IMG/VR virus record: IMGVR_UViG_2802428822_000002
Location: 37,398 to 101,397 of that record
Length of the DNA stretch: 64,000 nt
Strand: one strand, 5' to 3'
Source of the DNA: a virus
Taxonomy: Duplodnaviria > Caudoviricetes
The notes under the pieces are model-generated. The model was given only the letters and a program-made list of their open reading frames with translations. It was not told the DNA's origin and searched no databases. A program made the translations under genes and the position numbers. This document shows positions 1-41,047 of this stretch, in pieces. How positions within the stretch are numbered: position 1 is the first letter of the stretch; each line of letters starts with the position of its first letter.

Positions 1-1125
1 CCCATCGAGCTCCTCAATCGAGCGCAGGCAGCGGCGCGCCAGCTGGCCTGTGCCAGCGGACGGCTCAAGAATGCGCATCTGCGGCTCATCGCGCTTGCGT
101 AGCAGCGAAACCTGGCGGAAAACCTCGTCAACCGTCTTGTCTGGTGTCGGGAAAAAGCCGAAACGCTTAGCAGGCGTGACAGCCTTGCTCTGCAACGGAT
201 CTTCCTCTGCCTGGCCGCCGTCAGGCAGAACCTCGCCGTAATAGAAAGCGAGCGCCTTGTTGACGTCCTTCACCAAATCCTTGCGGATCATCCAAAGATG
301 CGCGTTGCCGTTCTTGAACACGCGGATCTTGAAATATGGCGTCTCAACCTCGCACTGAGCCGGACGATTGAAACCAAGACGGATAGCGTCGATCGATCCG
401 ATGGCGCCTGCATAAGTGGCACGTGGAGGCTTCTTGCCGTCCATGATGGTGAAGACGCGCTCGATATCGATCAGCGTATCGCGCGCCGTGTTGCCGCGTC
501 CGCTTCCCCAATTCCAGCCGCCGCTGTCGGTGAAAGCATAGGTGAGGATGATGCGGGCGCCGATCTTGAAACCGTCATGGCTCTTGAAGCGGCGATCTAG
601 TTTCGAAAAAGCGTTGGCGATGCCGCGTAGCCAAATCGTGCCGGCGTCCGCCATGAACTGGTCAAGCGTTGCATTCAGATTTTCGACGGTGACGGGCGGC
701 ATTCCTGCATCGATCTCATCCTGATTAATGATTGCGCCCGTGGTGTAATCGCGCCTCTCAGGAACATAGGCCATCTGCTTGCGTAGCTTGTTCTTCGCCT
801 CGATGTCCATCAGCGCTTCAAGTTCGGTGCGCTCGATCAGATACGCCCAGGTCTTCAACTGCATGATGCGTCGCGCCGCGCGCATGTAATCCTCGCGCTC
901 CGGAAGCTGGAGAGCATGAGCGAAAGCCTTGATTTCATTGATGTGATTGCTGGTGTAGCCGTTGCGGTCAAGCGTCGGGGAAATGGTGCGTTCGATCGCG
1001 TTCGCAGCGCATAGCGCCTGCTGAGCTATTTCCATCTTCGCATAAGCGTCTGCGTAAAGTTCAATCGTCTTGTCGTGCGCTGCGACGATTGCTTCGATGT
1101 TCGGGCGGACTGCGATCTGGTTCAA
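1..1125 (-). CDS. DUF4942-domain protein fused to a class I SAM-dependent (DNA) methyltransferase; runs off the window edge
   Basis: Manual translation from TTG at 1125 (SD AGGAGA upstream) gives RGIANAFSKLDRRFKSHDGFKIG, YFKIRVFKNGNAHLW, FGFFPTP and ILEPSAGTG (MTase motif I). Absent from the ORF track because the gene is truncated by the window. Confidence 0.85.
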   Translation of the reverse strand, partial: MNQIAVRPNIEAIVAAHDKTIELYADAYAKMEIAQQALCAANAIERTISPTLDRNGYTSNHINEIKAFAHALQLPEREDYMRAARRIMQLKTWAYLIERTELEALMDIEAKNKLRKQMAYVPERRDYTTGAIINQDEIDAGMPPVTVENLNATLDQFMADAGTIWLRGIANAFSKLDRRFKSHDGFKIGARIILTYAFTDSGGWNWGSGRGNTARDTLIDIERVFTIMDGKKPPRATYAGAIGSIDAIRLGFNRPAQCEVETPYFKIRVFKNGNAHLWMIRKDLVKDVNKALAFYYGEVLPDGGQAEEDPLQSKAVTPAKRFGFFPTPDKTVDEVFRQVSLLRKRDEPQMRILEPSAGTGQLARRCLRSIEELDG

Positions 1126-1297
1126 TTTCAATCTCCTTCAGTGCCACGATTGGCTGATCAGGCTTCCCAATCCACGCCGGCAGAGAACCGCCGCCATGGT
1201 TTCCATTTCCAGTAATTGCCCTTGAGATGGCACCACATCATCCAGAATGGGCCGATCTGGAATTCGTAGGCGGTTGCGCCTCGGAACCATATAATCT

Positions 1298-2428
1298 TCA
1301 TTTGGGACCATTCGTTGCGGTGGCGGCAAAGGCAGAGACGATTCCCTCAGGTAGGAGGACGTTGGGCATCCAGCACAACGGCTTGACGTCGCCGCGATGA
1401 ACCGCGTTCCACTGCCCATTCTGGAAAGCGCCCTGCACGGAATAGATGAAGGCACCTTCCTTCACCGCGAGAATGCAATGCTTTCCGTCCTTCGGCGCGG
1501 TATCCATTGACTGCCACGCCACCGGCTCGGCTACCGCTGGCTGCGGGGTTGCGTAGTAAGCTTGCGCAGGGAACTCGTCCTGACCGAACGCCATAAGGTC
1601 CGGTGCTTCTTTCCCATTCAGCAGCCAGTCGTACAGGGCGACGTGGTAAGCTGCCTTGTACTCTTCGCGGAACATGTGCGGCGTGACCTCACGATCTCCC
1701 TTTCGGATCGATACGAAGTAATCAGTGCGCCCATCAGACAAGCGCATCGGCTTGACGCTGCATGCCACCGGCTCCGCCTCTACAGTGTGTGTCTGTGCGG
1801 GAGCGGCCATCCGCAAATGGTGAGCGAAAGAACGGTTTAATGAGGCGACTAATGCCTCCGCTCTTTCCCTGGTATCCAGTGGGAGTGTAACGCCAGAAGC
1901 AGCATCCCTCGCGCTGAACCAATGACGTTCTCCGTCCGATGAACGCGACACGTGGAAAGGTCCGTCAGACTCTTCCGCCTCTACAGGGTGTGGAGCGGCG
2001 AGGGCGGAGAGGATGGCATGCCAGACGTTATGAACGGTGGCCTCCTCGCTCTCATTCGACCAATCAACAGCTAGCGCGGCGGCAACCATTTCTGGCGTAG
2101 CATCTTCCGGCACCTTCACCGCCTCACGTTGCTGGGACGCGGCGGCCGCTGGCATTTCCATTTCAACGATCTCGACAAAGCCGTCACGATCGTCGCTCAA
2201 TTCGTCCGTCTCGGGATCGAGTCCCAACTCTTCCATGCGGGCGGCGCGAGCTTCTTCGAGGCTCGCCTTCCAATTGGCAGCCGTCGCGCTGTTATCCAGG
2301 TCAACTTCCTCTCGCAGGATATTGACCATTGAAGCGGCTTCCGCGTTCGCTTGTTCGAGTGACGGGAACGGCTTCATCGGTTTTCCTGGAACGGTGAAGC
2401 TTCCACCCGTGACGAGATAGATTTTCAT
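1298..2428 (-). CDS. Multi-domain phage hypothetical protein with a C-terminal DUF551-like domain
   Basis: 376 aa ORF with SD; C-terminal WQSMDTAPKDG...PLCWMP pattern. Confidence 0.65.
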   Translation of the reverse strand: MKIYLVTGGSFTVPGKPMKPFPSLEQANAEAASMVNILREEVDLDNSATAANWKASLEEARAARMEELGLDPETDELSDDRDGFVEIVEMEMPAAAASQQREAVKVPEDATPEMVAAALAVDWSNESEEATVHNVWHAILSALAAPHPVEAEESDGPFHVSRSSDGERHWFSARDAASGVTLPLDTRERAEALVASLNRSFAHHLRMAAPAQTHTVEAEPVACSVKPMRLSDGRTDYFVSIRKGDREVTPHMFREEYKAAYHVALYDWLLNGKEAPDLMAFGQDEFPAQAYYATPQPAVAEPVAWQSMDTAPKDGKHCILAVKEGAFIYSVQGAFQNGQWNAVHRGDVKPLCWMPNVLLPEGIVSAFAATATNGPK

Positions 2429-2648
2429 AGCGTCGGTCTCCTAATGTGAGCACGGTTGCTCGTGTTGGTTAGTCACCAAAGACGCCTTTGCGGACGTCTT
2501 CCCAATACATCGCGCAATGGCGGCAGTGCGGACCGTCGCCATGCTCTTCAATCATCTTGTCGCATGACTCGCATTTCCATGACCGCTCTTCAGCGGCCAC
2601 AGATTCAGCGTCTTGACGGCGGATCTTGATTGCCTGGCGCATGGATGG

Positions 2649-2921
2649 CTAGCCGCCGCAGCGCCCTTTGAGTTTGGCGATCTCCTGCTTGTGATCCTTC
2701 TGGCCCATGCTGCCGACTGGCAGGCCGATGATGAAGACGCCGAGAGCATCATTGCGCGCCATTTTCCCCTGCTGTTCCGAAAGCTGATTGAGGCGCTTCA
2801 TGTCAGCTGGAGAACACGGCTGGCCATCGGAGGCAGACGGTTTGATGCGGTCAGGCGGAGTCGCGCAGGCAGCAAGGCTGGCCATAAGTGACATTGTGAG
2901 GATTAGAGAGATTTTTTTCAT
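2649..2921 (-). CDS. Small lipoprotein
   Basis: MKKISLILTMSLMASLAAC signal peptide with lipobox; SD AAGGAG. Confidence 0.75.
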   Translation of the reverse strand: MKKISLILTMSLMASLAACATPPDRIKPSASDGQPCSPADMKRLNQLSEQQGKMARNDALGVFIIGLPVGSMGQKDHKQEIAKLKGRCGG

Positions 2922-3032
2922 GAGGTAAAACTCCTTTCGTTGCGAGTGCGCGCGAATCCATCCGCCCGGGCGCCTGGCGGCATCTGATAAGAGTGGCGGC
3001 GCGTTTGGTGCGCCGCCGGGTGGCTGCAACTG

Positions 3033-4394
3033 TTAAACGCGCATCGGCATAAGGCAGGACATCCAGCCGGCGCGATCGCCAGTAACGAGAGCGGGCGATC
3101 CTGCATCCGAAAACTTCATGGTGAAACTTGAGCCGTTGCCGCGAGCGTCTTCGATGATGGCCATCGTGTAGCCGGCGTTGAAACCGATCTCGAATTCATC
3201 GCCATCATAGTCGCAAGCGATGTCAGCGACGGCGCTGCCAGAGTCCGGATTGTTGACGGTGAGGCGGCAATTCCCGGCAGTGAACGTGAATTTCGCCGAC
3301 CTACCTCGCTCTCTGGAAATCAGCGATATGAGCGATACAGCTCGGATAGCTTCAATCGCCCCATCCGCATCCATGGTTGCTGTCTTGTCGTTCCATGCTG
3401 GAATGACGCGCTGATAGTCGGGGAACGTGCCGTCGACCGTCTTCGAGGTGATGACGATATCGTCAAAGGAAAGGCGCACCTTGGTTTCGGTCACAGCAAT
3501 GGTGACGCTTTCCGGGCACGCCTTGCCCTTCATGAGTTTATGGAAGAGAGAGACCGTCTTGCGCGGAATGATGACATCCGGCATCCCGGCGGAACCTTCC
3601 GGCGCGTCGATATCCTGGCGATAGAGGCGATGGCCGTCGGTTGCGACCATGCGGAGCTGCGACCCGCCTTCGGTCTCAACGGTATGGAGATAGATCCCGT
3701 TCAGGTAATAGCGGGTTTCCTCCGTTGATACCGCGCCCATGGTTGAATCGATACCATCCCAGAACGCTTTGCCGGGAAGCTGGAATGTGAAGGCTGAAGC
3801 AGCCGGGCCGGCAAGGTGTGGCCAATCATTCAGCGAAAGTGGCTGCAGATGATACTGCACGCGTTCGAAGTCGAGAGAGTCCCGGTCTTCGCCGGTTGTG
3901 ATCGCCACGAAATCGCTTGCCGTCGCCTTCTTGAGCAAATCCTTGAGGAGATGCGCGGGCAGTGTTGTTCCGAATTCACGGTCCGCGGCCGCTGGGATAG
4001 TTACCGCGATCTCGATATCCAAATCTGTGCCGGTCAGGCTAAGTGCCTCGCCGGTGCCGACAAGCGCGACATTCGAAAGGATCGGGATCGTATTGCGCTT
4101 TTCGATCACGCTGTTGACGATTTCAACTGCGCGCGTCAGGCGAGCGCGTTCGATCAATGCAGATGCGCCGACAACCGGTTCGGCTGAAGGCAGACCGACG
4201 GGTGCGTTGTCGTTTTTAGCGACGATTGCCAGCTCGACGGGTTCGAGCTCGACTGACACGGCCTCGGCTTCGGCTTCCGGCTGCTTTCCACGTGCCGGGA
4301 AGGGGATGATATCAGCGGAAATTTTCTGGCTTGTCGCCGTCTCGATGGAAATCTCCGAAGCTGACTGCATAGCGCGTGCAATGTGTGCGTTCAT
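3033..4394 (-). CDS. dnaN: DNA polymerase III beta sliding clamp with an N-terminal extension
   Basis: RNTIPILSNV, TGTDLDIEI, STEETRYYLNGI, VATDGHRL, GTFPDYQRVIP, IGFNAGY and LMPMRV motifs. Confidence 0.93.
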   Translation of the reverse strand: MNAHIARAMQSASEISIETATSQKISADIIPFPARGKQPEAEAEAVSVELEPVELAIVAKNDNAPVGLPSAEPVVGASALIERARLTRAVEIVNSVIEKRNTIPILSNVALVGTGEALSLTGTDLDIEIAVTIPAAADREFGTTLPAHLLKDLLKKATASDFVAITTGEDRDSLDFERVQYHLQPLSLNDWPHLAGPAASAFTFQLPGKAFWDGIDSTMGAVSTEETRYYLNGIYLHTVETEGGSQLRMVATDGHRLYRQDIDAPEGSAGMPDVIIPRKTVSLFHKLMKGKACPESVTIAVTETKVRLSFDDIVITSKTVDGTFPDYQRVIPAWNDKTATMDADGAIEAIRAVSLISLISRERGRSAKFTFTAGNCRLTVNNPDSGSAVADIACDYDGDEFEIGFNAGYTMAIIEDARGNGSSFTMKFSDAGSPALVTGDRAGWMSCLMPMRV

Positions 4395-4487
4395 TCGTTC
4401 ATTCTCCTTTGCGATCACAATTGATCTATTGGTGGCGATTCCACCTCGCACCGGCTGCGAGAGCCGGTGAAAGCTGAAATCGATCAG

Positions 4488-4817
4488 TCAACCGTCTTCG
4501 TCATCATCGAAAACCGGCAAGCCTTCGATGACATCCGCGTCCGCGTCGAATAGGATGTAATGGCAAGCATTCGCGTGAGCGTGCCGGATGATTGGGAAAA
4601 GGTCCTCCGGCATCCCATAGTCCATCCCGCCATCATCTGGCAGTTTTGGCGCGTGAATGAACCATCCGGTCATGGTAGCGCCAAGCGTGCTCATGAGCGC
4701 GCCGCCACCAAATCCGTAGTAGCTCACGGCGTGATTCATCGTTGCGCTTTCTGACAGCCATGCCTTAGCGGCTGGTGTCAGGTGGGCGGTTGAAAGGTAG
4801 AGAAACTTCCTGATCAT
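4488..4817 (-). CDS. Hypothetical protein of the mobile-element family with LSTAHL...ILFDAD motifs
   Basis: ORF with SD and upstream hairpin. Confidence 0.65.
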   Translation of the reverse strand: MIRKFLYLSTAHLTPAAKAWLSESATMNHAVSYYGFGGGALMSTLGATMTGWFIHAPKLPDDGGMDYGMPEDLFPIIRHAHANACHYILFDADADVIEGLPVFDDDEDG

Positions 4818-4860
4818 TCTTCATTCTCCTATCGTGGCCACGCGTAGCCTATGGCTTGCC

Positions 4861-5127
4861 TTACACGCACTTCGTGAAGTCGCGCTTTGTGATCTTCTTG
4901 CCCTTCTTGTTTTGCACAAGGAGAGTCATGTACGGCGAAATTGACAACTCCGGCAAATCTTCGGAGTCGAGCGGGAGACCGGAAACCTCGATTTCATTGA
5001 TCACTTGATTCCTGAATTCAACCGAACTGGAATCGTGGGTGATCAGTTTTTCAAAGGCTTCCTGCTTCGACTTAGCCTTGACGTAAGCCGTGGTGTAGAT
5101 CATGACGTCCGTTTGATAGATCGGCAT
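4861..5127 (-). CDS. Hypothetical protein
   Basis: Start overlaps the stop of the upstream gene. Confidence 0.6.
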   Translation of the reverse strand: MPIYQTDVMIYTTAYVKAKSKQEAFEKLITHDSSSVEFRNQVINEIEVSGLPLDSEDLPELSISPYMTLLVQNKKGKKITKRDFTKCV

Positions 5128-5345
5128 CAGACCTCATCCCCATCGATCGCCACGGCGCTCCACTCGGTTGATCCTGATGCGTCCTCAATGGTCTCCAGAC
5201 GGGCCACAATCGGCGATCCGTCCGGCAGGGTTCCCAAGTTTCCAGTGTCCATCTCCGCATCCTCCAAGGCAGCAATTGCTTCTTCTTCGGATTCGGCTTC
5301 GATCTCGAATGCGCAATAAATGCGCGCAGCAAATTTGTAACGCAT
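5127..5345 (-). CDS. Acidic hypothetical protein
   Basis: SD AGGAGG and upstream hairpin; IEAESEEEA motif. Confidence 0.65.
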   Translation of the reverse strand: MRYKFAARIYCAFEIEAESEEEAIAALEDAEMDTGNLGTLPDGSPIVARLETIEDASGSTEWSAVAIDGDEV

Positions 5346-5467
5346 GCTCTTGACCTCCTGAGTGCCACGATTGGCTGGTTTGCCGCCCTATGCGGCTTGT
5401 ACGTCATCGACTTCGACGTCCTGGTTGTTGCCGTCAATATCCTCGGACGGGATTTCCGATTGCGCTG

Positions 5468-5737
5468 TCATGCAGCGTGGCCCAGATACTTTGCATTTCG
5501 CAGCCTCAACAATCCGAGCCGCCAATTGATCCGGTAGCCAATGCCACCAGAAAGAATGGTGAAATGTCCTTGCGTGCCGACAGCAAGCAAAGCCTGCTTA
5601 ATCAAAGCAGGAGAGCATGGGGCTATAACAAATTCCCCATCTCTCTTTTTGAAAACAACCCAGTCACGCCGACCGTATCGCGATTTCCGTGCGGCGTCCT
5701 GAAAGGTGAGTGCACCTTCTTTCATCAGGCCACGCAA
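5468..5737 (-). CDS. Hypothetical protein
   Basis: ORF coupled to the upstream gene. Confidence 0.55.
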   Translation of the reverse strand: MRGLMKEGALTFQDAARKSRYGRRDWVVFKKRDGEFVIAPCSPALIKQALLAVGTQGHFTILSGGIGYRINWRLGLLRLRNAKYLGHAA

Positions 5738-6036
5738 GCGATGCGATAATTGATGGAAAGCGGGCTCCAGACGAAATCTGCCGGAACATCGCCGTTATGC
5801 ACCCATGCACGCATTCCGCCTTGGATCTTCTGGAATGCTTCGTGGTGGGTGAGTGCCTTGCACGGCATGCCTTTGCCGGTGAAGGCCTCGATTGCCCGTT
5901 GCCGATCATCGGGAGACTGAAAGGCGAATAGCTCTTCGCCATTGCCCCAGTCGGACAGGACAAAGAAGGTATCGAACACCGGCGAACCGGATGCATCGGA
6001 ATAGGTGGCAAAGTTAGAGGGTTGATGAGTGAGCAT
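5725..6036 (-). CDS. Hypothetical protein
   Basis: SD AGGAGA and upstream hairpin. Confidence 0.65.
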   Translation of the reverse strand: MLTHQPSNFATYSDASGSPVFDTFFVLSDWGNGEELFAFQSPDDRQRAIEAFTGKGMPCKALTHHEAFQKIQGGMRAWVHNGDVPADFVWSPLSINYRIACVA

Positions 6037-6077
6037 CGATCGATCTCCTATAGTGGCACAATTGCCGGTGAAAGAAT

Positions 6078-6398
6078 TCAGGTGCGAGCGTAGCGCCGGA
6101 CGGCGATCCGAAATTGCATATGGAGCGCGTGCAACGTGTCGCGGATCACCTTGCCAAGGGGAATGTTGATCTCATGCGACTCGTGAGACCACGTGTCCAG
6201 GTCGGGCTTGTAGCGTTCGATCACATCATAAGGATCATCATCGAATTCATGCCCGATTTCCTTTAACCTTGAGTCATGAACATGAGGCGCGACCGCGCGG
6301 TTGAACATGTTAGTCAAAGCCGCTTCCTCGGTCATGAAGACGGCGCATTCGGTTGCGAAATTCGTGTCGGAAACGACTGTCCAGATGACTGCTTTCAT
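6078..6398 (-). CDS. Hypothetical protein
   Basis: ATG at 6398 with SD GAGGAG and upstream hairpin. Confidence 0.65.
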   Translation of the reverse strand: MKAVIWTVVSDTNFATECAVFMTEEAALTNMFNRAVAPHVHDSRLKEIGHEFDDDPYDVIERYKPDLDTWSHESHEINIPLGKVIRDTLHALHMQFRIAVRRYART

Positions 6399-6440
6399 GG
6401 TCTTGATCTCCTCTTGTGCCACACTTGGCAGTTGGACTTC

Positions 6441-6898
6441 GATTGTTCATTGATCACGCTCCGAGTTGGCTTAGCGTCTCCGCCGCTTAGGCGCGGTTGG
6501 TCCATTGCATCCAAGAAGGGAGCGGATCGTGAGCAATCAAGCGATTGTCATGCGCCGAATGTGTTCGCCGCTCTTATGTCGGCTACTGGCAAGCATGGCG
6601 CGCTTAGGATGAGTTCACCTAGTCTACCCATTACGGGCGAGGCGACAGGAACAAGATTAAATCACCGGTCAATTAGGCTGTTACTCCAGCGGGAGCCACC
6701 CGCAAGCATCTTGCCGGTTTTAGTATCCCGGCGCATGACTGCCTCCTATATTGCCGTTCAAGGCGTCCCGTTCGGGTATCCCTATGGGAATTTCATCAGG
6801 CGGCCTTGTCGCCTTGATTGGTATGTGCTGCTAGATCGTCCTGGCGTCGGCCACCAATGCAGGACGATTATGCGGAGGGCGGCGACTAACGCCGCCCA
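6441..6898 (-). ncRNA. Candidate structured non-coding RNA inside the leftward operon
   Basis: No credible ORF. Long-range stems 6441-6462/6519-6538 and 6547-6557/6729-6739, plus several nested hairpins. Confidence 0.45.
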
Positions 6899-6904
6899 AT
6901 CTGG

Positions 6905-8143
6905 TTAAACCGCGAGGTGAAGGACTTCACCAAAGGGCACTTTCGCAGCAAGGCGTGCGATGGTCTTTCGCTCTCCATATGCCGCCCAAATGACCGGCGC
7001 GGCGGGTTGCTCTCCGAAATGTTCCGGTTTGCAATCCAAGTCTGTCAAATAGACGATTGCCGACGCGTCAGGCGCATTGTCTTCGATCCATTCGAAGGCT
7101 GGAGCAAATCGCGTGCCGCCGCTTCCGCGCGCCTTGATCTGCATTTCCTCGCCCCGTTCAAATGTAAGGACCTGATGCACAGCGACATTGCAAAAGATCA
7201 CTGTGATCTTGTCCGCCGCTCCTTCATCAAGCGCGGCCTTGGCTTCCGCTGAACATGCGGCGAAAGCATCTTGATCGATGGAACTGGAGTCATCGACCAC
7301 ATAGACCACATGCGAAAGCGAGTCCGCCACGAGTCCGGGAAGGATCAAACCCGCGCCGATATAGCGCCGGTTTGGGTTCATCCACGAATAATCCTTGACG
7401 GAAGATTGATCGATGAAAGCCCGCAATTCTTCTTTCCAGTTATAGCGAGGCGCGATTGTCACCGCGTCTATTTCTTGAAGAAATCCCGGAATGCTTCCCG
7501 CATTATGAGCCTTGGCCACGGCGAGCGCTTGCCGAACGTTTGCTTTCCATTCGTTTTCGCTTGCTGTCAGCTTGCCGGGCTCATGAGCGGGCGCGGCATC
7601 CCTGATTTCCACCATTGCCGCGCTAGGCTGATCGCCGGGCGCGCCTGTCTGGTTTCCGTCCGGCTTGCCGCTTGCCGATGACGGCGAGGGCTGTTGATGG
7701 CCGGCGCCTTGCTGATCGTTCGGCTTGCCTTTGTCGCCGTCCTGCTTGGCCTTCTGGAGGCGTTGGAAAATCTCCTCCTCCGAAAGGTCCGTGTAAGCTG
7801 GATTGATCAATGCGCCTTCCGGCAGATTGAACCCGGCTTCCTTTAGTTCGGGGTTGACCGAATAGGCACACGCCTTTTTCCATTCTTCCGGCGCACGGTT
7901 GCCGCGCCGGACATGATGGAGCCTTGCGCAACTCGAAACCGCGCTGGCGACATAGCCGCGCAAGACGGAAGGCTTCAACCCCTCGACAAACGAAGGATTG
8001 AAGCCAAGGGACGCGCCGTCCGTCCACATTTCCTTGCATGCCGGATCCTCGACAAGCTCCAGATGCAACGAAAGCGTTGCATAGAACGGTTGCTCCGTCA
8101 TCAAGACGGCGCGCGCGTTATCGACTAGCTGAAACGCGCTCAT
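6905..8143 (-). CDS. DUF2201-type metallopeptidase-like / VWA domain protein
   Basis: N-terminal PFYATL..TDG..FNP; C-terminal MIDAS-like DDSSSI, GGTRFAPAF and YLTD. Confidence 0.85.
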   Translation of the reverse strand: MSAFQLVDNARAVLMTEQPFYATLSLHLELVEDPACKEMWTDGASLGFNPSFVEGLKPSVLRGYVASAVSSCARLHHVRRGNRAPEEWKKACAYSVNPELKEAGFNLPEGALINPAYTDLSEEEIFQRLQKAKQDGDKGKPNDQQGAGHQQPSPSSASGKPDGNQTGAPGDQPSAAMVEIRDAAPAHEPGKLTASENEWKANVRQALAVAKAHNAGSIPGFLQEIDAVTIAPRYNWKEELRAFIDQSSVKDYSWMNPNRRYIGAGLILPGLVADSLSHVVYVVDDSSSIDQDAFAACSAEAKAALDEGAADKITVIFCNVAVHQVLTFERGEEMQIKARGSGGTRFAPAFEWIEDNAPDASAIVYLTDLDCKPEHFGEQPAAPVIWAAYGERKTIARLAAKVPFGEVLHLAV

Positions 8144-9189
8144 GCAAAAACTGCCGTGTTGCGACCGCACCAGCTAACCCACGCGCCTGTTTCAGCAAGG
8201 GATTTGTTGCGCTTTTGAGAGTCGACCGCCGTTAGGACTTCATAGGCTTTGGGAATACGCTTGATGTATTCCATGATTGCGCCGTAATTGATCGGCGTTG
8301 CAGCCCGGGCGAGGGCGGCGGAAACCGCGAAAAGCGCGCCCGGGCCTTGCGGAACCTTTGCGCCCGCAGGATCGGCAAGGATCGTTTTGATCGAAGGAAC
8401 GTCAAGAAACGTCCGAATAAAGCCCTCGAATTCGACCGACGGACCGACGCCGACGCGCCCGGCGATGAGCGGTTGCCTCATCTCCGCGTCACGGTCCGCA
8501 TAATTGGCCGCGTCCGTCCAAGAGCGCGGAGTCGGAAAGGCGCGGGCATCAGCTGGCATGGAAAGCTTGATATCGCCGTCATCGAGCGCAACGCCAGGCA
8601 TCAGGTGAAAGAGTTGTGGCCGGAAGCGGAGGAAGGCAATCATTGCCGGATGGCGATTAGTGGCAATCGCCCAATCGGCCCACGGCGCAACATCTGGCAC
8701 AACGTCGATATGCGCGAAACGGTTCGCGAGCGCGGAAGGCATTCTTTGCGCGCTGGCGCGGTCGGACTGCCGATTGCCGGCGGCCGCAATCCTCCATCCC
8801 GGCGGCAATCTGTATTCGCCAATGCGGCGATTCAGGATGAGCTGATAGCACGCGGCTTGCGTGGATGCAGGCGCGGCGTTGATTTCATCGAGGAAGAGAA
8901 TTCCGCGTGGGCCATCGCGCTTTTCATCTGGCAGAATCGACGGGTTCGCCCAAATCGCCGCGCCGTCTTTGATGTGCGGCAAGCCACGCAGGTCAACCGG
9001 CTCAAGGGTCGTAAGCCGCTGGTCGATAAGTGCTAGACCCAATTTGTCGGCAGTTTGCGCGACAATGTCAGATTTGCCGCAACCGGGAGGACCCCAAAGC
9101 ATGGCGGGCGTATCGCCTTCAATATAAGCCTCCAGCATCTTGGCCGCGAAGTCGATTTTGACGCCTTTGTCTTGAATGTGCATGTTCAT
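8140..9189 (-). CDS. MoxR-like AAA+ ATPase
   Basis: Walker A GPPGCGKS, Walker B LFLDEIN, AAGN, ALANRF, PTPRSW. Confidence 0.92.
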   Translation of the reverse strand: MNMHIQDKGVKIDFAAKMLEAYIEGDTPAMLWGPPGCGKSDIVAQTADKLGLALIDQRLTTLEPVDLRGLPHIKDGAAIWANPSILPDEKRDGPRGILFLDEINAAPASTQAACYQLILNRRIGEYRLPPGWRIAAAGNRQSDRASAQRMPSALANRFAHIDVVPDVAPWADWAIATNRHPAMIAFLRFRPQLFHLMPGVALDDGDIKLSMPADARAFPTPRSWTDAANYADRDAEMRQPLIAGRVGVGPSVEFEGFIRTFLDVPSIKTILADPAGAKVPQGPGALFAVSAALARAATPINYGAIMEYIKRIPKAYEVLTAVDSQKRNKSLAETGAWVSWCGRNTAVFA

Positions 9190-9231
9190 TTTTTCAATCT
9201 CCAGAATGTGCCACGATTGGCGAATTGATGA

Positions 9232-10107
9232 TTATGCGAGGAAATCGGAGACGTCCGCGAGGATCGCGGCGGCGGCATCCGCCACGCTTTCCCGCAAGTC
9301 TTCGTTTTCCCGGAGTGTGTCCGCATCATGCCGCACAAGTTCGCGCCGCATGCGTTCAGCGATCTCCGAAAGCCTTGGATCGCTGGTAATGTTCAACGCA
9401 GGCAGAACAAGCGCCAGGTCGCGCACATTCTCGACAAGAGAGTCGCGAAATATGCCTTGCGCTTTCACGTTGTCATTGCCGGGAATATAGTTGCGGAGCT
9501 TTTCCACCATGCGTTCACAGACTTCCGAAACGCGGCGGTAGACGTCGCGCACGGCTTCCTGCAATTGCTCTTTTGCCCGTTCTTCGATCTCTGCGCGGAT
9601 GATTTCCGCTTGAGCGTCACCAACGGCCACGCGGAAATCTTCGGCAGCTGGAACCGGATTGATGATTGTTTTGAAATCAAACCGGGCGCGGATTTCTGCC
9701 TCGCCCGGATAATCTTCCGGCTTGAACAGGTCCCCAAGGCGCTTTTTCGCGTCCTCGACATGCTTCGAATAGCCTTTGATGAATTCATCCACGGCATTGT
9801 CAAAGTCCGCCCTGATACCGCGCAAACGCGCCGTATAGTCGAGATAGGCGGCAGCAGGAAGAAGACGGGCGCCGTCATCCTGCCAAGGGAGAGTCCGCGA
9901 GTAGTGGAACGTCCGCGCTGCGCTGATAGCCGATTGGATAGGCGCAAGCGCCTCTTTGTTCACCAGCAGCTTGTTATAGCGTCCGGCATCATTGGCCGCG
10001 CCATGAGATTCATTCACCTCATCCGTTACTTTACGGTCGATGCGGCGTGCGGTCCAAGCGGAAACGCGGACGTGAGAAAGCATTGCTTTTTCAGACAGGA
10101 CAGACAT
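9232..10107 (-). CDS. Conserved helical protein that usually accompanies the AAA/VWA pair (DUF3150-like)
   Basis: AML..V.VSAWTARR.DRKVT, TLPW.DDGARLLP, LNIT.DP; operon position. Confidence 0.7.
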   Translation of the reverse strand: MSVLSEKAMLSHVRVSAWTARRIDRKVTDEVNESHGAANDAGRYNKLLVNKEALAPIQSAISAARTFHYSRTLPWQDDGARLLPAAAYLDYTARLRGIRADFDNAVDEFIKGYSKHVEDAKKRLGDLFKPEDYPGEAEIRARFDFKTIINPVPAAEDFRVAVGDAQAEIIRAEIEERAKEQLQEAVRDVYRRVSEVCERMVEKLRNYIPGNDNVKAQGIFRDSLVENVRDLALVLPALNITSDPRLSEIAERMRRELVRHDADTLRENEDLRESVADAAAAILADVSDFLA

Positions 10108-10163
10108 TTTCAAGCTCCGTTGTGCCACTATTGGCGAGGGGTGGCCTTAAGGCCGGTTGATGA

Positions 10164-10346
10164 TCAGTTCAGGAATTCACGCTTGCGGGCGATGGCCTTG
10201 CGGCGCTGATCGCGGCGCTTGCGGCCGTCTTCCGTTTTCGAGAACGGCGCGGCATGCTTGCCAGCGACTTCACGGCGCGGCTGAAAGAAGTCTTCGAGGT
10301 TAACCGAGAGACGGCGGATTGCTTCGGCGGAAAGCGGCTTGTTCAT
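10164..10346 (-). CDS. Small basic hypothetical protein
   Basis: SD GAGGAG; 60 aa. Confidence 0.55.
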   Translation of the reverse strand: MNKPLSAEAIRRLSVNLEDFFQPRREVAGKHAAPFSKTEDGRKRRDQRRKAIARKREFLN

Positions 10347-10391
10347 ATGTTCAAATCTCCTCTTGTTGCGCCTCAAGGGCGAGGGGTTGAC

Positions 10392-10562
10392 TTAGTAACC
10401 GTTGCCAGAGAGAAGGCGGACCTTTTCCTGAAACTCACGCGCCGCCAAAACCTTAACCAAGCCTTGAAGCTGGAAACGCAGGTTGGACTTGCGAAGAGGG
10501 TTTGCTTCGCGTTCGATTGCGGCTTTCAGAATGCGGACTTTCTTTTCCGTCTCGGTTGACAT
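10392..10562 (-). CDS. Small hypothetical protein (MSTETEKKVRILK...)
   Basis: Manual translation, 56 aa; SD GGAG and upstream hairpin. Confidence 0.6.
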   Translation of the reverse strand: MSTETEKKVRILKAAIEREANPLRKSNLRFQLQGLVKVLAAREFQEKVRLLSGNGY

Positions 10563-10646
10563 GGTTTGATCTCCGTTGCGGCCACCATTGGCCAGGACAC
10601 TAGCGCCCGGATATCGGCACGGCTGAGCGTGTCGATACGCAAGAGG

Positions 10647-10814
10647 CTAGGCTTTGCTTGCTGCAATCGAACGGTTGAGCTCTTGCAGATATTGCATGAT
10701 TGGAACGGCTTCATATTTCGCCGTGTCCACCCGCTCGACAAAGGCGCGGCTGAACGTCTCGAGGATGGCCGCTTTCGTTTCGCGGTCTCGGATAACCCAG
10801 CTAGCGGTCCGCAT
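10647..10814 (-). CDS. Small hypothetical protein (MRTASWVIRDRETK...)
   Basis: Manual translation, 55 aa; directly follows the upstream gene. Confidence 0.55.
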   Translation of the reverse strand: MRTASWVIRDRETKAAILETFSRAFVERVDTAKYEAVPIMQYLQELNRSIAASKA

Positions 10815-10816
10815 GG

Positions 10817-11035
10817 TTATTCGCCAGCAGCGGCGACCGTCACGGCGGGCGCGGTTTCCAGTTCACACACAAGCGGCGCGCCTGAAAGGTCGATAGTCAC
10901 GCCGGGAATGATTTCCGCCGCTTTGACGCCTTTGTGGATAGCCGTCTGGCAGTCGGAATAGCTCAAGTGCTGATCAAGCACGAATGTATGGATCTCGCCA
11001 TTGATTGCGAGGAACGCGAGGAATGCGAACGTCAT
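10817..11035 (-). CDS. Small hypothetical protein
   Basis: SD GGAGG and upstream hairpin. Confidence 0.6.
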   Translation of the reverse strand: MTFAFLAFLAINGEIHTFVLDQHLSYSDCQTAIHKGVKAAEIIPGVTIDLSGAPLVCELETAPAVTVAAAGE

Positions 11036-11151
11036 GGCCTTTCAACCTCCGATATGGTCACGATTGACCTGGCATTTCGAAAAGGGCGAACGCGCGCCCT
11101 TGCCGAAAAGTCAGTGTGTCGCTTAGAGCGTCCACCCCATGATTGACGCGG

Positions 11152-11433
11152 TTACTCCGTGACCGGACGAACGGCGAAACAGTGAATGAACGCGAGGCTT
11201 TCGCGATAGAGCCAGCGCGCGCCTTTGGCTTTCCAGATGGTTGCGCCCGGTGCGGTGCGGCGTTCGATGAGTTCGGCTTGCGCGGCGCGTCGACCATTGC
11301 GGCCAAGCGGTGCGGCGCTTCCGTCCGGTGCTGCTATTCCGATAATGTGCCCGGCTATGTCCTCGACGATCTGGCGAGCGCCAGTCCGGCGAGCTGCAGC
11401 GCGTGCGGCTTTCCAAGTAAGGCGAGCATTCAT
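11152..11433 (-). CDS. Hypothetical protein
   Basis: ATG at 11433 with SD GGAG and upstream hairpin. Confidence 0.6.
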   Translation of the reverse strand: MNARLTWKAARAAARRTGARQIVEDIAGHIIGIAAPDGSAAPLGRNGRRAAQAELIERRTAPGATIWKAKGARWLYRESLAFIHCFAVRPVTE

Positions 11434-11504
11434 TTCGATCTCCAATGTGTCACAGTTGACGGTCTGGCATTTCCATGTCCGCCGCGAGGGCGGACGCGGA
11501 AAGG

Positions 11505-11894
11505 TCACGCGGCTTTGAAAGCTTGGCTCATGATTGCATCTGCCGCGCATTTGGCGCGGTATGCGTCCATAACGGCAGCTGGCCATTTCCGCTTGTCTGA
11601 GTAGCGATCGATGCTTTGCGCATTCAGCTGCCGCTGGAAATGATCGTCCGCGATCTGCGCATTCTCGCATGCGCTGGCCTTGTCGGTTGCCGCGTGCCAG
11701 ATTGCGAACTTGTAGACGGCGGCGCGGTCGAATGTGCCTGAACCGGTCTTGAGATTGCGAAGGAAGATTGTTGCGCCCTTGCCAGCGCCTTGGATAGTCG
11801 CGAGGTAGGGAACGCCGACGCTCGCATATGATCCGTTAGGAACGCGGTCAAACACGATGATTGAACCGGACTCGGGAATATTGAGATTGCACAT
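11505..11894 (-). CDS. Hypothetical protein
   Basis: ATG at 11894 with SD GGAG and upstream hairpin. Confidence 0.6.
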   Translation of the reverse strand: MCNLNIPESGSIIVFDRVPNGSYASVGVPYLATIQGAGKGATIFLRNLKTGSGTFDRAAVYKFAIWHAATDKASACENAQIADDHFQRQLNAQSIDRYSDKRKWPAAVMDAYRAKCAADAIMSQAFKAA

Positions 11895-12156
11895 TGTCAG
11901 TCTCCAGTTGTGCCACGATTGGCGGTTTGGGAAACCGGCGAACAAGTCCGCCGGAAACCAAAGCCGTCATGCGGTTTCGGTTATTGTTGCCTCCGTTATT
12001 CCGTGCGCACGGTGGGCTAGCGCTATGATCGGTCCGCCATGGTGCGGGCGATATTTGTCAAAGAACTGAGGCAGCGCCTCGCATGCGGTATGTTTCGGAA
12101 TGCTGGCTTGTCAGGCTGGCATTTCGATAAGGGCGGCTAGCGCCCTTGCCGAAAGG

Positions 12157-12477
12157 TCAGAGAACAACGTTGACGCAAACCAGTTCGCGCCAGTCATCGG
12201 GATAAACAGCGCCCTTGAAGGCGTCCGGGCAGGTGTCGCCGATACCGACCACAAACACCTCGCCGCTGTTCGTAATGGCCTGAAGCTCGACATGCGGGTT
12301 GATCGAGAGGAGAGCGGCCATAGCGAGGGCGCCGCATGCTGCCATGCCGAAGAAGTCCGCCTTGATCGCTTCCCGGCGAGTGGCGCGGGCCTTGCCGCAA
12401 GAGACGTTGGCGTAAAAGCCAAAGGCCTTGACTGTCAGGATAGACATGCCGGACTTGGTACGGGTGAGCTTGAACAT
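12157..12477 (-). CDS. Hypothetical protein with one TM segment
   Basis: ATG at 12477, SD GGAG, upstream hairpin. Confidence 0.6.
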   Translation of the reverse strand: MFKLTRTKSGMSILTVKAFGFYANVSCGKARATRREAIKADFFGMAACGALAMAALLSINPHVELQAITNSGEVFVVGIGDTCPDAFKGAVYPDDWRELVCVNVVL

Positions 12478-12570
12478 TGTATCGGTCTCCGAGGGTGCCA
12501 CGATTGGCGGGTTGAAGCTGGCGACTGGATAGCGGCCCGTAGGCCGCCACCTAGGCGTCAGGGGCGGCCC

Positions 12571-12726
12571 TCAGGCCACCGCTACGATTTGACGACGGTA
12601 AGCACGTGCGGTTTGGCGATTGTATTCCGCCCGGTCAGCATCACCTTCGCTGTCGTACTTAGCGGCGCGGCGCTCATGGTAAGCCGCAAGGCGTTCGTTC
12701 TGTTCGTTGCGTTCGGTGGCGGTCAT
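12571..12726 (-). CDS. First gene of the leftward operon, 51 aa hypothetical protein
   Basis: ATG at 12726, SD GGAG, upstream hairpin, promoter immediately upstream. Confidence 0.65.
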   Translation of the reverse strand: MTATERNEQNERLAAYHERRAAKYDSEGDADRAEYNRQTARAYRRQIVAVA

Positions 12727-12764
12727 TGGGTCGGTCTCCGTTGCGATCACGATTGATCTGACTA

Positions 12765-12816
12765 CCAAGATAGACATTCGCATAAGCATGTCAACTATAA
12801 AAATGCGCATGAGAAT
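12765..12816 (-). promoter_or_regulatory. Leftward sigma70-type promoter with two 14-bp operator-like boxes
   Basis: TTGACA (complement of 12789-12794) and a TATCTT -10-like hexamer; boxes at 12803-12816 and 12776-12789. Confidence 0.7.
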
Positions 12817-13256
12817 ATTTTATTGGGAAGCGAGGATATCAGCACGCGCGCATGAGGGGCTGGCCTAAAGGAGGGGTGTCGCCCTGTACCATTGGCGTAC
12901 ACCTCGCGAGTCGGCTTGCCGGGATGTGTCACCCGCTGGCCAGGTGCGGACCGTGGGCGGATCGATAGTGGACCATGGCCGGCCAGCTGATCGGCGGACA
13001 ACAAGCACCATGCACGCGCCTATCTCTTTCACCCCTCCCCATTGCCGCGCCAGCGGGCGAGGGGAAGGGCAAGGCGTGCCGTCGCCACCATGCCAGCGCC
13101 GACCGTCTCGGCCACCCCTCGCCATGCGCTCATGTTCCCCTCACACAAAGACACACACAAGCGCACTGGCACGCGTCAGCCGTTGGCCGGTGTCGACGGC
13201 CACGCGGTGCCACCGTCGCGCCCCTCGGCCACGGTAGGCCGCGCCCTGATCGGATC

Positions 13257-13352
13257 GAGGGGTATGGGGTGGTTTCTTAAGAAAAACGGCCTTTTGGACC
13301 GCGACCGCGTTGGCAGTCGTTTTCCCGCGTTGGCAACAAACGAAAATTTTGA
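13257..13352. other. Possible cos / packaging-site region
   Basis: G-rich GAGGGGTATGGGGTGG followed by A/T tracts, repeated CCGCGTTGGCA and AAAATTTT, in an ORF-free gap next to HNH genes; resembles cos regions of HK97-like phages. Confidence 0.4.
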
Positions 13353-13470
13353 GCGCGTTTGTAAATGTGCCCGTTTTGTTCTATGTGATGAATAGATAAA
13401 ACGGCCCGAGAAGGCGCGCCAACGCCGGTCCCGGGCCTGACCAAACATAGAGCCTGTTGTGGAGGCGTGA

Positions 13471-14460
13471 ATGATGGCTGAAAGCCAACTTAGCTTATTG
13501 CAGCTTTTTGAAAAGAACGATCGTGCATCTAACGGTCTCTGTTTAGATTGTAGTGCGGCAACTCCGTTGAAGCCACCGAGTACAGTAATACACAAAAAGC
13601 GTTGTGACGAATGCGCTCGCAAATTTCGAAACCTTCGACGTGCAGAAAGGTTTCGGGAAGCCCGCTCAGGTGTGTCGATGGTAAAGCGCGGCGACATTGC
13701 TTCGAAGTTATGCGGTCGTTGCGGATGCGAATTTCGATATAAGGTCTTCAGCAGGCCACCGCGGTGGTGTGATCCCTGCCGGCCTTTGGCTGAATGCGAG
13801 GCTAAAAAGGCAGTTCGGGTTAGTTCAGATCCTGTCGATATGGCGCGAGCTGAGATCGCACGAAAAGCATCTGGCAGAGCGGATTCCTTGAAACGGAAGA
13901 AGAGAAGATCCGAATGGAGATGCCTAAAGTGCAACGATCCTGTTCCTGGTATACGAAAGAAATTCTGCTCTCCCACGTGTCAAAAGGCTTTCGAGGAGCA
14001 GCGACGGCACGAGAAAAGGCTTCAGAAGCGTGGTCTTGAACAGTGGCCGGAACTCGTTTGTGCCGAATGCGACCAAAGATTCGTAGCTCGTCCACACAGC
14101 AATCAGGATCGAAAGTTTTGCGGCCAGGACTGTGGTCATCGATGGCATCTCCGCGAGAAAACCAAACGCCGGCGTGCGAGGATGACAACGCTGGCAGTCG
14201 TAAATTTCACGGTGGATTCAATCCTCGAGCGCGACGGCTGGACATGCCAAGCGTGTTTCATCTCGACGCCTAAGTCAGTTCGCGGCACGAACGCGGCTAA
14301 CGAGCCTCACATGGATCACATCGTTCCATTGTCACGGGGTGGTGACCATGCTCCATCGAACTGCAGATGCTTATGCCGCAAGTGTAACCTAGACAAAGGT
14401 TCACTGACCGATCGGGAGTGGCAAGCCAAGAAACGAAAGCGAGAGAAGTTAGCCGCATGA
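13471..14460 (+). CDS. HNH endonuclease with multiple N-terminal Cys (zinc-binding) motifs
   Basis: Many CxxC pairs; ILERDGWTCQAC...HMDHIVPLSRGGDHAPSNCRCLCRKCNLDKG. Confidence 0.9.
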   Translation: MMAESQLSLLQLFEKNDRASNGLCLDCSAATPLKPPSTVIHKKRCDECARKFRNLRRAERFREARSGVSMVKRGDIASKLCGRCGCEFRYKVFSRPPRWCDPCRPLAECEAKKAVRVSSDPVDMARAEIARKASGRADSLKRKKRRSEWRCLKCNDPVPGIRKKFCSPTCQKAFEEQRRHEKRLQKRGLEQWPELVCAECDQRFVARPHSNQDRKFCGQDCGHRWHLREKTKRRRARMTTLAVVNFTVDSILERDGWTCQACFISTPKSVRGTNAANEPHMDHIVPLSRGGDHAPSNCRCLCRKCNLDKGSLTDREWQAKKRKREKLAA

Positions 14461-15081: not shown

Positions 15082-15405
15082 TCAATCCGAAAGGCTCGCA
15101 CTCTTGCGGAGTGCCGCGTTGATCCTAGACTGCCAACCTTCGCCCCCAGATTTGAAATGGTCGATGACTTCCTGGTCGAGGCGGATTGATATTGCCCTCT
15201 TCGGACGCTGTTTTGGTGCCTGGGCGGCCTCTTGGACTTTCTGTCGAGAGCCTTTGGCAGGGTCGATCAAACGCTTGCCGGCGCGCTTTGGCTTTTCCAG
15301 TTTCGTTTCGACCGCCCGCGTGCTTCGCGCGGACTTCAATTCCTCTGCGATTTCATGTGCCGACTTCAATCCACCTGACCGGCCGAGTTGTTGTGCAATC
15401 CCCAT
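15082..15405 (-). CDS. BrnA-family antitoxin / ribbon-helix-helix DNA-binding protein with no adjacent toxin
   Basis: KRAISIRLDQEVIDHFKSGGEGWQSRINAALRK; SD GGAGGAG. Confidence 0.85.
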   Translation of the reverse strand: MGIAQQLGRSGGLKSAHEIAEELKSARSTRAVETKLEKPKRAGKRLIDPAKGSRQKVQEAAQAPKQRPKRAISIRLDQEVIDHFKSGGEGWQSRINAALRKSASLSD

Positions 15406-15430: not shown

Positions 15431-15485
15431 ATTCTCATACGCATTTTATTATTGACATGCTCAGAAGAATTTGGCAATGATAGGC
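15431..15485 (+). promoter_or_regulatory. Rightward promoter with two 14-bp operator-like boxes
   Basis: TTGACA at 15452-15457, flanked by ATTCTCATACGCAT (15431-15444) and ATGCTCAGAAGAAT (15457-15470). Confidence 0.65.
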
Positions 15486-15489
15486 CATC

Positions 15490-35939: not shown

Positions 35940-36414
35940 CGGCGGCTCAAATAAACTATCTGACGCGGAGAAGATTCGACGCGGCACGTTTCGACCTGAC
36001 CGATCGGAAGCGGCATACAATGAGCGCGCGGCCGCCAATGTCGTTACCGGCGTATTCCTCTCGGATATCCCGGTTCCAACGTTCCCGCTCAATGAGTTTG
36101 GCAAGAAGACATACGAAAAGTTCGCTCAGCTTCTTCTTGATCAAGGAAAGCTAACGTCGGTCACGGCGGCTCATTGTGAGTCCCTTGGCATGATCGACAT
36201 GCGCATCAATGGGAAAATCACCGCCGGCAAGATCCCGACGGCGGATGACATGAAGCAGCGCACATCAATAATCAGGATGCTCGGAGTTGCAGAAAACGCG
36301 CCAGTCATCGCGGGCGGGACGAAAAACCGGTTCGAAGGCGCAGGATTCAGTAATTCTCGCTCTTCGCCGTATCGACTGCGCCCATATCGAGCCATTGATA
36401 CTGGAAAACTCTGA
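35920..36414 (+). CDS. terS: Terminase small subunit
   Basis: K.RRGTFRPDR N-terminal motif; position immediately before TerL. Confidence 0.8.
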   Translation: MAGNKNSGGSNKLSDAEKIRRGTFRPDRSEAAYNERAAANVVTGVFLSDIPVPTFPLNEFGKKTYEKFAQLLLDQGKLTSVTAAHCESLGMIDMRINGKITAGKIPTADDMKQRTSIIRMLGVAENAPVIAGGTKNRFEGAGFSNSRSSPYRLRPYRAIDTGKL

Positions 36415-39608: not shown

Positions 39609-39614
39609 GAGGCG

Positions 39615-41000: not shown

Positions 41001-41047
41001 ACACCGCGTCACAGAGATCCCTACCGGGCACACCGAAGGGACCAACA

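Follow-up and report, generated by a model that had tools for sequence, protein, structure and literature searches.

What is the role of a short hairpin that recurs before gene after gene of a single operon? The question is raised by the record IMGVR_UViG_2802428822_000002 of the IMG/VR database (Duplodnaviria; Caudoviricetes), a 101,397-bp provirus of rhizobial type that is 83% complete by CheckV and is called G000 here. We analyzed its right 64 kb (64,000 nucleotides, record positions 37,398–101,397), referred to as the window; coordinates are those of the window unless the record or another locus is named. An earlier note on this stretch had listed 15 mini-hairpins, each just upstream of a ribosome-binding site in a leftward operon. 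We find the hairpin repeated on one strand of one operon, with a stem that covaries and is kept stable by compensation, and conserved in five proviruses before unrelated genes. It is strongly supported that these sites form a real family of RNA-type hairpin modules, hitherto undescribed, that accompanies ribosome-binding sites; the literature that was searched holds no description of the module.

The module is confined to one leftward operon

All 15 hairpins lie where the earlier note had placed them, and 14 of them have the form NNCA-ANNG-TGNN with both outer pairs Watson-Crick. The remaining site, GGCTA-CGCG-TGGCC (4836–4849, minus strand), deviates, as the note had already said: U.G replaces the C-G pair and the loop is CGCG. 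It precedes a gene of 109 amino acids (aa; 4488–4817, phrog_5003). We scanned for a seed that carries no pairing requirement (CA-N4-TG, then GGAG 4–14 nt later). The minus strand of the window has 20 such seeds; both outer pairs form in all 14 that lie within 1152–12755, and neither forms in the remaining six. The plus strand has 11 seeds, one of which has both outer pairs. In the whole record there are 17 paired seeds, and 15 of these are on the minus strand at record positions 36209–50152. Counting the deviant site and a further canonical copy that lies outside the window, 1.2 kb to its left (record 36198–36209, minus strand), the operon contains 16 copies, every one on the minus strand of a single ~14-kb leftward gene block (record 35.6–50.2 kb). 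No copy stands before any rightward gene of the record, so that the restriction to the leftward operon, which the earlier note had seen in the genes it checked, extends to the whole record.

A covariance model of 81 sites scored the 15 canonical copies at 21.9–33.4 bits and the deviant copy at 14.0 bits (E 0.19), and the best further match elsewhere in the genome reached only 12.6 bits. The copies fit this model by construction, and the informative feature is the empty score gap beneath them. On a gene map of the operon that is crude and whose called starts are approximate, 16 of about 24 gene starts have a module and one has a decayed copy. Most of the genes that lack a module overlap their upstream neighbor or directly adjoin it. 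Two are separated from it by a gap and have a ribosome-binding site without the hairpin, namely a gene for a 90-aa lipoprotein-like protein (2649–2921) and, to the left of the window, a gene of 93 aa.

Related proviruses carry the module in a syntenic operon

Pattern scans revealed clusters of the module in three other proviruses, each on one strand of the syntenic operon: 14 copies in G001 (an IMG/VR provirus of 113 kb), 11 in G006 (a contig titled Rhizobiales bacterium AFS084561) and 17 in G009 (titled Rhizobium lusitanum JHI1118). An alignment search with a small operon protein reached the 112-kb provirus G416 of a distant lineage, in which the homolog is 40% identical, and the metagenome fragments L066 and L067; each of the three has the module, though they were recruited via the protein rather than the motif. 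The 17 copies of G416 (L069/L070, G416:C1:42067-58044) are variants of the form NNNCG-ATTG-TGNNN, always with 5 bp, with a loop that is mostly ATTG, a C-rich tract upstream and GGAGTCCC following. All parts of the module have changed together in the lineage of G416. Copy numbers per operon range from 11 to 17 across the proviruses. Below, G000, G001, G006 and G009 are the close proviruses (58 sites), the five proviruses are these plus G416 (75 copies), and alignment A3 comprises 81 sites (80 distinct) from the five proviruses, L066 and L067.

Outside this group the module is scarce. Megablast of window positions 1–12000 gave no close relative among sequenced phages, and a search for related loci using the ATPase of the operon alone found nothing. 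Relatives of its DnaN protein in the phage collection are all at most 42% identical, the best being from Rhizobium phage 16-3, and the 25-kb locus of that phage has no copy of the module. Among 401 sampled genomes of the family of G009, G009 is the only one with a cluster (11 matches); four others have one match each, and the reversed-pattern control gave 8 matches. The module is not found as a host motif among the genomes searched.

Single copies were seen elsewhere. Two Neorhizobium genomes (L057:5536-5873 and L054:6923-7260) have one canonical module (GCCAATCGTGGC .. GGAGATCGATATG) between higB and higA, and in L054 higB is apparently split over two frames. A Shinella metagenome-assembled genome (L045:2641-3753) has a single module-like copy, which may be chance, before a 357-aa gene whose product has an N-terminus that we take to resemble PurM. 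Such single copies are about as frequent as matches to the reversed-pattern control, but seem over-represented among Rhizobiales titles (10 of 24 loci).

The stem covaries and its stability is maintained

Across the 80 distinct sites of A3, the two lower stem pairs change freely and never break. Pair 9–20 is GC in 57 sites, CG in 14 and AU in 9, and pair 10–19 is CG in 50, UA in 18 and GC in 12, with none of the 160 cells mismatched. At the third pair, 79 sites have C-G and one has U.G. The closing pair is never broken: 65 sites have A-U and 15 have G.U, and all 15 G.U pairs belong to G416 (15 of its 17 copies). The covariation score was 0.508, compared with 0.166 in shuffles, of which 0 of 500 reached the observed value, and at most 0.16 when the partner was slid; the score was computed also for the 58-copy subset. 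Pairing at the two lower positions had been a condition for including the curated copies in A3, so the count among unfiltered seeds matters. In these, both outer pairs form at 78 of 141 seeds on the operon strand versus 4 of 67 on the opposite strand, an excess which indicates that the covariation is no artefact of selection.

The covariation that the earlier note had read from a single operon also holds between genomes, at orthologous sites and in the distant G416 lineage. Copy 12 (4413–4426, minus strand; copies are numbered leftward from the promoter), which precedes the gene of the 453-aa DnaN sliding-clamp homolog (3033–4394), is GATCA-ATTG-TGATC with 5 bp in G000 and GCCA-ATTG-TGGC in G001, G006 and G009, so that two pairs have changed on both sides. 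Likewise, copy 6 (GGCCA-ATGG-TGGCC, 5 bp, 10580–10593, minus strand), before the gene of a 56-aa basic protein (10392–10562), is GGTCA..TGACC in G001 and G009, again a compensatory change.

Stem stability is maintained by compensation: of the stems with at most two G-C pairs, 20 of 23 have a fifth pair, versus 22 of 58 stronger stems (Fisher p 6e-5). The predicted energies of the RNA hairpins are about −2.7 to −5 kcal/mol. RNAalifold, run on 62-nt windows, predicted the mini-hairpin and no other structure, and an Rfam scan of window positions 1–13500 (E ≤5) gave one chance-level match only (sR20, E 2). The top of the hairpin is fixed where the lower stem is variable. Over the 81 sites, T17 and G18 never vary and conservation reaches at least 90% at C11, A13 and G16, giving the pattern C, A/G, loop A..G, U, G with an A-Y-N-G tetraloop.

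The hairpin keeps a fixed distance to the ribosome-binding site

In G000 the hairpin lies 5–7 nt from GGAG, and GGAG lies 6–11 nt from the start codon. Over the five proviruses, the distance from the 12-mer to GGAG is 5–7 nt in 68 of 75 copies, that from GGAG to the start is 6–9 nt in 68 of 73, and the start is ATG in 69 of 73. Conservation extends 3' of GGAG. In the close proviruses the following pentamer is AYYGA (A 48, Y 47, Y 57, G 47, A 52; n=58), and in G416 TCCC follows GGAG at 17 sites, whereas the other genes of G000 have varied, ordinary ribosome-binding sites lacking the AYYGA extension. Internal copies have a C-rich flank just upstream, and the 10 columns upstream of the hairpin show no conservation in the alignment.

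The earlier note had argued for a structure rather than an operator in double-stranded DNA, and had left it at RNA or single-stranded DNA. The covariation does argue for a folded single strand, and of these two options RNA is the one favored by the G.U pairs, the restriction to one strand and the constant spacing from the ribosome-binding site. A hairpin in the mRNA is the favored structure on account of four features taken together: the single orientation, the fixed GGAG spacing, the conserved 3' extension and the exchange of A-U for G.U. The G.U pairs of G416 point to the transcript since the complementary strand would carry C.A.

The first copy lies at a predicted transcript 5' end

A predicted early-left promoter, TTGACA-16-nt-TATCTT, lies at 12767–12794 on the minus strand and matches the consensus at 10 of 12 positions. 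Copy 1 (GATCA-ATCG-TGATC, 5 bp, 12745–12758, minus strand) starts exactly 8 nt past its −10 hexamer and lies 19 nt before the ATG of a 51-aa gene (12571–12726), placing it at the predicted 5' end of the transcript. The same promoter layout and the 8-nt distance are found in G000, G001, G006, G009 and L067, all five loci with a recognisable promoter, and in each of them the first copy is the 5-bp GATCA..TGATC hairpin while the intervening bases differ. A transcript starting at the usual distance would begin with the hairpin, with 0–2 unpaired nt before it. The first gene after the promoter is not the same one throughout. In G000 it encodes a soluble-looking protein, and in G001, G009 and G006 (L032:16754-16900, L059:3173-3319 and L058:14122-14316) a protein of 48–64 aa that is basic at its N-terminus and ends in a hydrophobic tail; the preceding hairpin is the same as in G000.

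The promoter region has further repeats. Operator-like repeats of the ATTCTCATGCGCAT type bracket the −35 element of the leftward promoter (12790–12850) and recur at ~15440–15490, where there are divergent promoter-like sites (15448–15481). The gene of a BrnA-type ribbon-helix-helix (RHH) protein (15082–15405) is upstream of the operon, between the two repeat regions.

Comparison with known phage elements

We compared the module to elements known from other phages. The earlier note had likened the hairpins to the start-associated sequences (SAS) of cluster K mycobacteriophages (Pope et al. 2011, PMC3203893), whose role was still given as unverified in 2025 (PMC12699233). The comparison is apt, these sequences being the nearest phenomenon so far described, but the module is no member of that family: the 13-bp SAS consensus GGGATAGGAGCCC, found 3–7 bp before starts, has 0 matches in the window at ≤2 mismatches. 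Both are GGAG-containing motifs a few bases before the starts, mostly ATG, of 11–19 genes from unrelated families; both belong to temperate phages, where they occur in a single orientation and only in the non-structural region, and both have conserved bases 3' of GGAG without complementarity to rRNA. SAS also resembles the module in having, in about half of the cases, an inverted repeat just upstream (extended SAS, ESAS). The ESAS arms are 17 bp long and imperfect with a spacer of 4–13 bp, whereas here the arms span 4–5 bp around a constant 4-nt loop and covary cleanly. According to Pope et al. (PMC3203893), the ESAS repeats do not covary, RNA pairing is unsupported and DNA binding is favored. 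The host phylum differs as well.

In phage T4, RegA and RegB act on the initiation regions of ~30 early mRNAs (Uzan and Miller 2010, PMC3014915). A phage-wide tag at early-gene ribosome-binding sites that is read by one phage protein is the likeness to the module, and the RegB consensus GG*AGRAYARAA extends 3' of GGAG (PMC3014915), as does AYYGA here. According to that review, the RegA and RegB sites have no secondary structure, unlike the hairpins described here. The operator of T4 gene 43 does include an upstream hairpin, and gp43 is described there as regulating its own mRNA only (PMC3014915).

Aca1 and Aca2 bind small covarying hairpins, which follow immediately on the transcription start and end ~20 nt ahead of the start codon (Feussner et al. 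2026, PMC13551039). An Aca regulator is a small phage protein that represses translation of an early accessory operon (PMC13551039). If transcription starts where predicted, copy 1 would have the same geometry. Aca motifs are reported once, in the operon leader, whereas there are 11–17 copies here, one per cistron. By analogy, the closest mechanism with experimental support would be an Aca-type RNA motif, here multiplied across the operon without a recognisable Aca.

An RNA operator is the tentatively favored function

We tentatively favor the interpretation that the hairpin is an RNA operator, read by a trans-acting factor and controlling translation or mRNA fate across the operon. The module would act as the cis-acting leader of nearly every independently translated cistron in this early leftward accessory operon. 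From 5' to 3' it is composed of the C-rich flank, the 4–5 bp hairpin, a 5–7 nt spacer, GGAG with its pentamer, and the start codon 6–9 nt later. In the hairpin itself the lower stem is free to vary, the top is constant (C-G followed by A-U or G.U) and the tetraloop is A-Y-N-G. This hairpin would fold in the mRNA, where its top, and perhaps also the positions directly following GGAG, would be contacted by a sequence-specific factor that is probably encoded by the phage. Such a reader is suggested by the contrast between fixed top and free lower stem, and by the concerted change of the module in the G416 lineage. The strict spacing to GGAG, the prevalence of ATG starts and the overlapping or adjoining position of most motif-less genes tie the module to translation, and the Aca hairpins, the T4 gene 43 operator and the RegA and RegB sites are precedents, supported by experiment, for repression at such positions. 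As a side effect or a second role, the ~35-nt modules may serve as crossover points at which gene cassettes are swapped.

Several points weigh against an operator with a phage-encoded reader. The conserved top could come from copying between sites, that is concerted evolution, rather than from a reader. No RNA-binding, helix-turn-helix (HTH) or RHH domain was detected in the 72 proteins whose genes the motif precedes (Pfam, E ≤0.001), which, together with a hairpin unlike the operator-like repeats of the promoter, is a difference from Aca systems. At E ≤0.01, the 20 proteins of the G000 operon region have no HTH or RHH domain except for the BrnA-like protein upstream of the operon; a reader with a novel fold may be among the operon proteins. 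No RegA or RegB homolog was found in the record, itself 83% complete (PF10715, PF01818, E ≤1). One G000 gene has kept its ribosome-binding site and lost the hairpin. The isolated copies at higA and at the purM-like gene hint that the module works without this phage. Finally, the 5'-end geometry of copy 1 fits an Aca-like leader operator and a stabilizer that needs no factor equally well.

The gene that lost its hairpin encodes a 60-aa arginine-rich protein (10164–10346, minus strand). It is preceded by a decayed copy, GCC-CTTGA-GGC followed by CGCAAC..GGAGATTTGA (approximately 10370–10380, minus strand). The protein is present in all seven loci that have context, and the module precedes its gene in six of them, with canonical copies before the orthologs in G001, G006, G009, G416, L066 and L067. 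A set of 5.8 billion clusters yields 9 members, 50,697 phage records contain no homolog, and no Pfam family fits; the protein's matches in the PDB are at chance level (E 0.16 or worse) and those in the Atlas are all below 0.9. An invariant arginine/lysine-rich C-terminal stretch forms a confident helix in the AlphaFold model, and this modeled helix proves nothing on RNA binding. From its co-occurrence with the module within one lineage, the 60-aa protein is a speculative candidate for the hairpin reader.

A more specific scenario, which we regard as rather unlikely, is an operon-wide translational switch in which one small phage protein, the 60-aa protein being the best candidate, would bind all of the ~15 hairpins and gate the entry of ribosomes to all cistrons simultaneously. 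The modules would at the same time be portable leaders for RecT-type insertion of accessory or anti-defense genes. If so, the switch would be a structured-RNA counterpart of T4 RegA, and inserted genes would arrive already wired into it.

Alternative roles of the hairpin

The alternative that retains most weight, a possible though doubtful one, is an RNA element that works independently of any factor, as a 5'-terminal stabilizer or an initiation platform. Copy 1 would sit at the primary 5' end, internal copies would become 5' ends after endonucleolytic processing, and each cistron would gain a protected mRNA with a standard leader. This possibility is kept open mainly by the position of copy 1, 8 nt from the −10 hexamer at all five loci. 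It is also in keeping with the selection on stem stability, and the isolated copies before host-type genes suggest that a phage factor is unnecessary. Many intergenic regions add a long GC-rich upstream hairpin, by which the cistron before it could be shielded at its 3' end. A stabilizer would have no need for the invariant loop A..G, the invariant C-G/U-G top or the conserved pentamer after GGAG. RNase E is expected to use AU-rich single strand, and the bases upstream of internal copies are C-rich instead. Nor is the hairpin predicted to improve access to the ribosome-binding site: predicted GGAG accessibility was 0.328 with the native and 0.341 with a shuffled hairpin, the native value being the higher in 32 of 75 cases (p 0.39). 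The long upstream hairpins also fail the T-run criterion of the terminator scan.

We rejected two further proposals. An insulator of the ribosome-binding site gains no support, GGAG being predicted to be no more accessible than with shuffled hairpins. An antisense RNA was considered for a 10-nt complement of the hairpin in non-coding sequence at ~16018, which is absent from G001, G006 and G009.

The long hairpins themselves were seen within 10600–12600 (minus strand), where several intergenic regions contain one, placed after the stop codon of the upstream gene and before the mini-hairpin. None passes the T-run criterion, and GAAATGCCAG is found at the 3' foot of two of them.

The earlier note had also proposed that the hairpins mark cassette boundaries that help gene shuffling. 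Comparison of related proviruses supports the boundary itself, and we consider it distinctly improbable that recombination is the primary role, with the ~35-nt modules serving as linkers through which a phage annealing protein exchanges cassettes. Of 224 ends of nucleotide-homology blocks inside the operons, 65 lie ≤35 nt from a hairpin against 18.5 ± 4.2 for random positions, a baseline distinct from motif-less gene boundaries. In four proviruses taken together, genes of 25 unrelated protein families follow the module, many of these families being present in one phage only. One case is the 93-aa gene at 11152–11433, which is found in G000 only and is flanked by direct repeats, each consisting of GAAATGCCAG and a hairpin. 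These hairpins are copy 4 before the gene (GTCA-ACTG-TGAC, 11449–11460, minus strand), on the left in the direction of the operon, and on the right copy 5 (GGTCA-ATCG-TGACC, 5 bp, 11056–11069, minus strand), which precedes a 72-aa gene (10817–11035). At the place of this cassette, G001 has a single hybrid junction, its left half corresponding to the first copy and its right half to the second. The record encodes a RecT-like annealing protein.

There is a precedent in the PeSL cassettes of T4-type phages, whose copies were shown experimentally to recombine and to shuffle genes (Arbiol et al. 2010, PMC2839356). PeSLs, too, are short units with a regulatory function that recur in a hyperplastic region, where they stand between small early genes that are non-essential, and reshuffling of genes between copies is what genome comparison indicates here. 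As described there, a PeSL is a sigma-70-like promoter joined to a terminator stem-loop, whereas here only copy 1 follows a promoter-like site and the terminator scan calls none of the hairpin copies, which have a 4–5 bp stem and no T-run. As the primary role, exchange driven by sequence identity would leave the compensatory stems, the G.U pairs, the fifth pair in weak stems and the strict GGAG spacing unexplained, and block ends would gather at any conserved island at gene boundaries. On the sequence comparisons, the modules are at a minimum sites of past cassette gain or loss.

A processive antitermination signal of the nut/boxB kind, in which the hairpin would load a phage antiterminator that is reloaded before each gene on the way past the intergenic hairpins, is very improbable. 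Copy 1 is promoter-proximal in an early-left operon, strong hairpins occur in several intergenic regions and the operon encodes the conserved 60-aa protein with its arginine-rich helix. The lambda-type nut has one or two promoter-proximal sites, whereas here 11–17 copies per operon, each 5–7 nt from a Shine-Dalgarno sequence, would not be expected. The boxB loop is of a type other than the A-Y-N-G tetraloop, the intergenic hairpins are without T-runs and the arginine-rich protein is without a Pfam match.

Least probable, and very unlikely in our view, is a site acting at the DNA level, either a duplex operator for a dimeric regulator or a single-stranded DNA hairpin in replication or recombination: the arms are palindromic, multi-copy, intergenic and in one orientation as in stoperators and cluster K ESAS, and DNA-parameter folding of three typical copies still gives −2.1 to −3.1 kcal/mol, but a dimer reading only CA/TG leaves the symmetric outer-arm changes unexplained, G.T pairs would weaken a DNA hairpin, the fixed GGAG distance and the conserved bases 3' of it indicate mRNA, the ATTCTCATGCGCAT-type repeats of the promoter are unrelated in sequence to the hairpin, and cluster A stoperators and other duplex operators are conserved without compensatory change, whereas here three pair types occur at two stem positions with no mismatch and with G.U pairs.

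Copies and genes along the operon

The remaining copies in the window, all on the minus strand, precede genes of varied content. Near the promoter, GCCA-ATCG-TGGC occurs as copy 2 (12497–12508) before a 106-aa gene (12157–12477) and as copy 3 (11912–11923) before a 129-aa gene (11505–11894). Copy 7 (GCCA-ATAG-TGGC, 10124–10135) precedes the gene of a 291-aa protein with a weak DUF3150 match (9232–10107), and its ATAG loop is retained at the orthologous site of G001. Copy 8 (GCCA-ATCG-TGGC, 9210–9221) stands before the gene of a MoxR-type AAA ATPase (8140–9189), which overlaps the next gene, a DUF2201 metallopeptidase/VWA gene (the pair spanning 6905–9189). Then follow copy 9 (GCCA-AGTG-TGGC, 6418–6429) before a 106-aa gene (6078–6398), copy 10 (GGCA-ATTG-TGCC, 6055–6066) before a 103-aa gene (5725–6036), and copy 11 (GCCA-ATCG-TGGC, 5364–5375) before a 72-aa gene (5127–5345). 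The GGCA/TGCC stem of copy 10 is retained at the ortholog sites in G001, G006 and G009. Beyond the deviant site and copy 12, copy 13 (GAGCA-ACCG-TGCTC, 5 bp, 2448–2461) precedes a 376-aa gene (1298–2428), and copy 14 (GCCA-ATCG-TGGC, 1143–1154) a 525-aa gene that has a TTG start at 1125 and continues past the left end of the window.

Among the 72 motif-preceded proteins, Pfam recognises DnaN, a MoxR-type ATPase, DUF5983, DUF4942, DUF3150, DUF932 and DUF6197. The set of DUF932, DUF3150, DUF4942, DUF5983, DUF6197 and MoxR-type proteins is often found in accessory or anti-restriction regions of mobile elements. The G000 record has two DnaN homologs. The 453-aa protein of the motif operon has an ~80-aa N-terminal extension, and the second, of 369 aa, is encoded outside this operon (L062:11017-12126).

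Significance

Start-associated motifs of temperate phages have been without a mechanism since 2011, and those of cluster K are not assignable to RNA or DNA. The module described here is a cleaner system, with a minimal hairpin of 12–14 nt, unambiguous covariation, G.U pairs and a fixed distance to the ribosome-binding site. It comes with natural variants, namely a retuned distant lineage, a decayed copy and a deviant copy. Thus, it makes testable the question of whether one tag can set the translation or stability of a mosaic operon while cassettes can still be exchanged within it. Should a reader protein exist, it would provide, together with its hairpin, a compact and portable part for post-transcriptional control in alphaproteobacteria.

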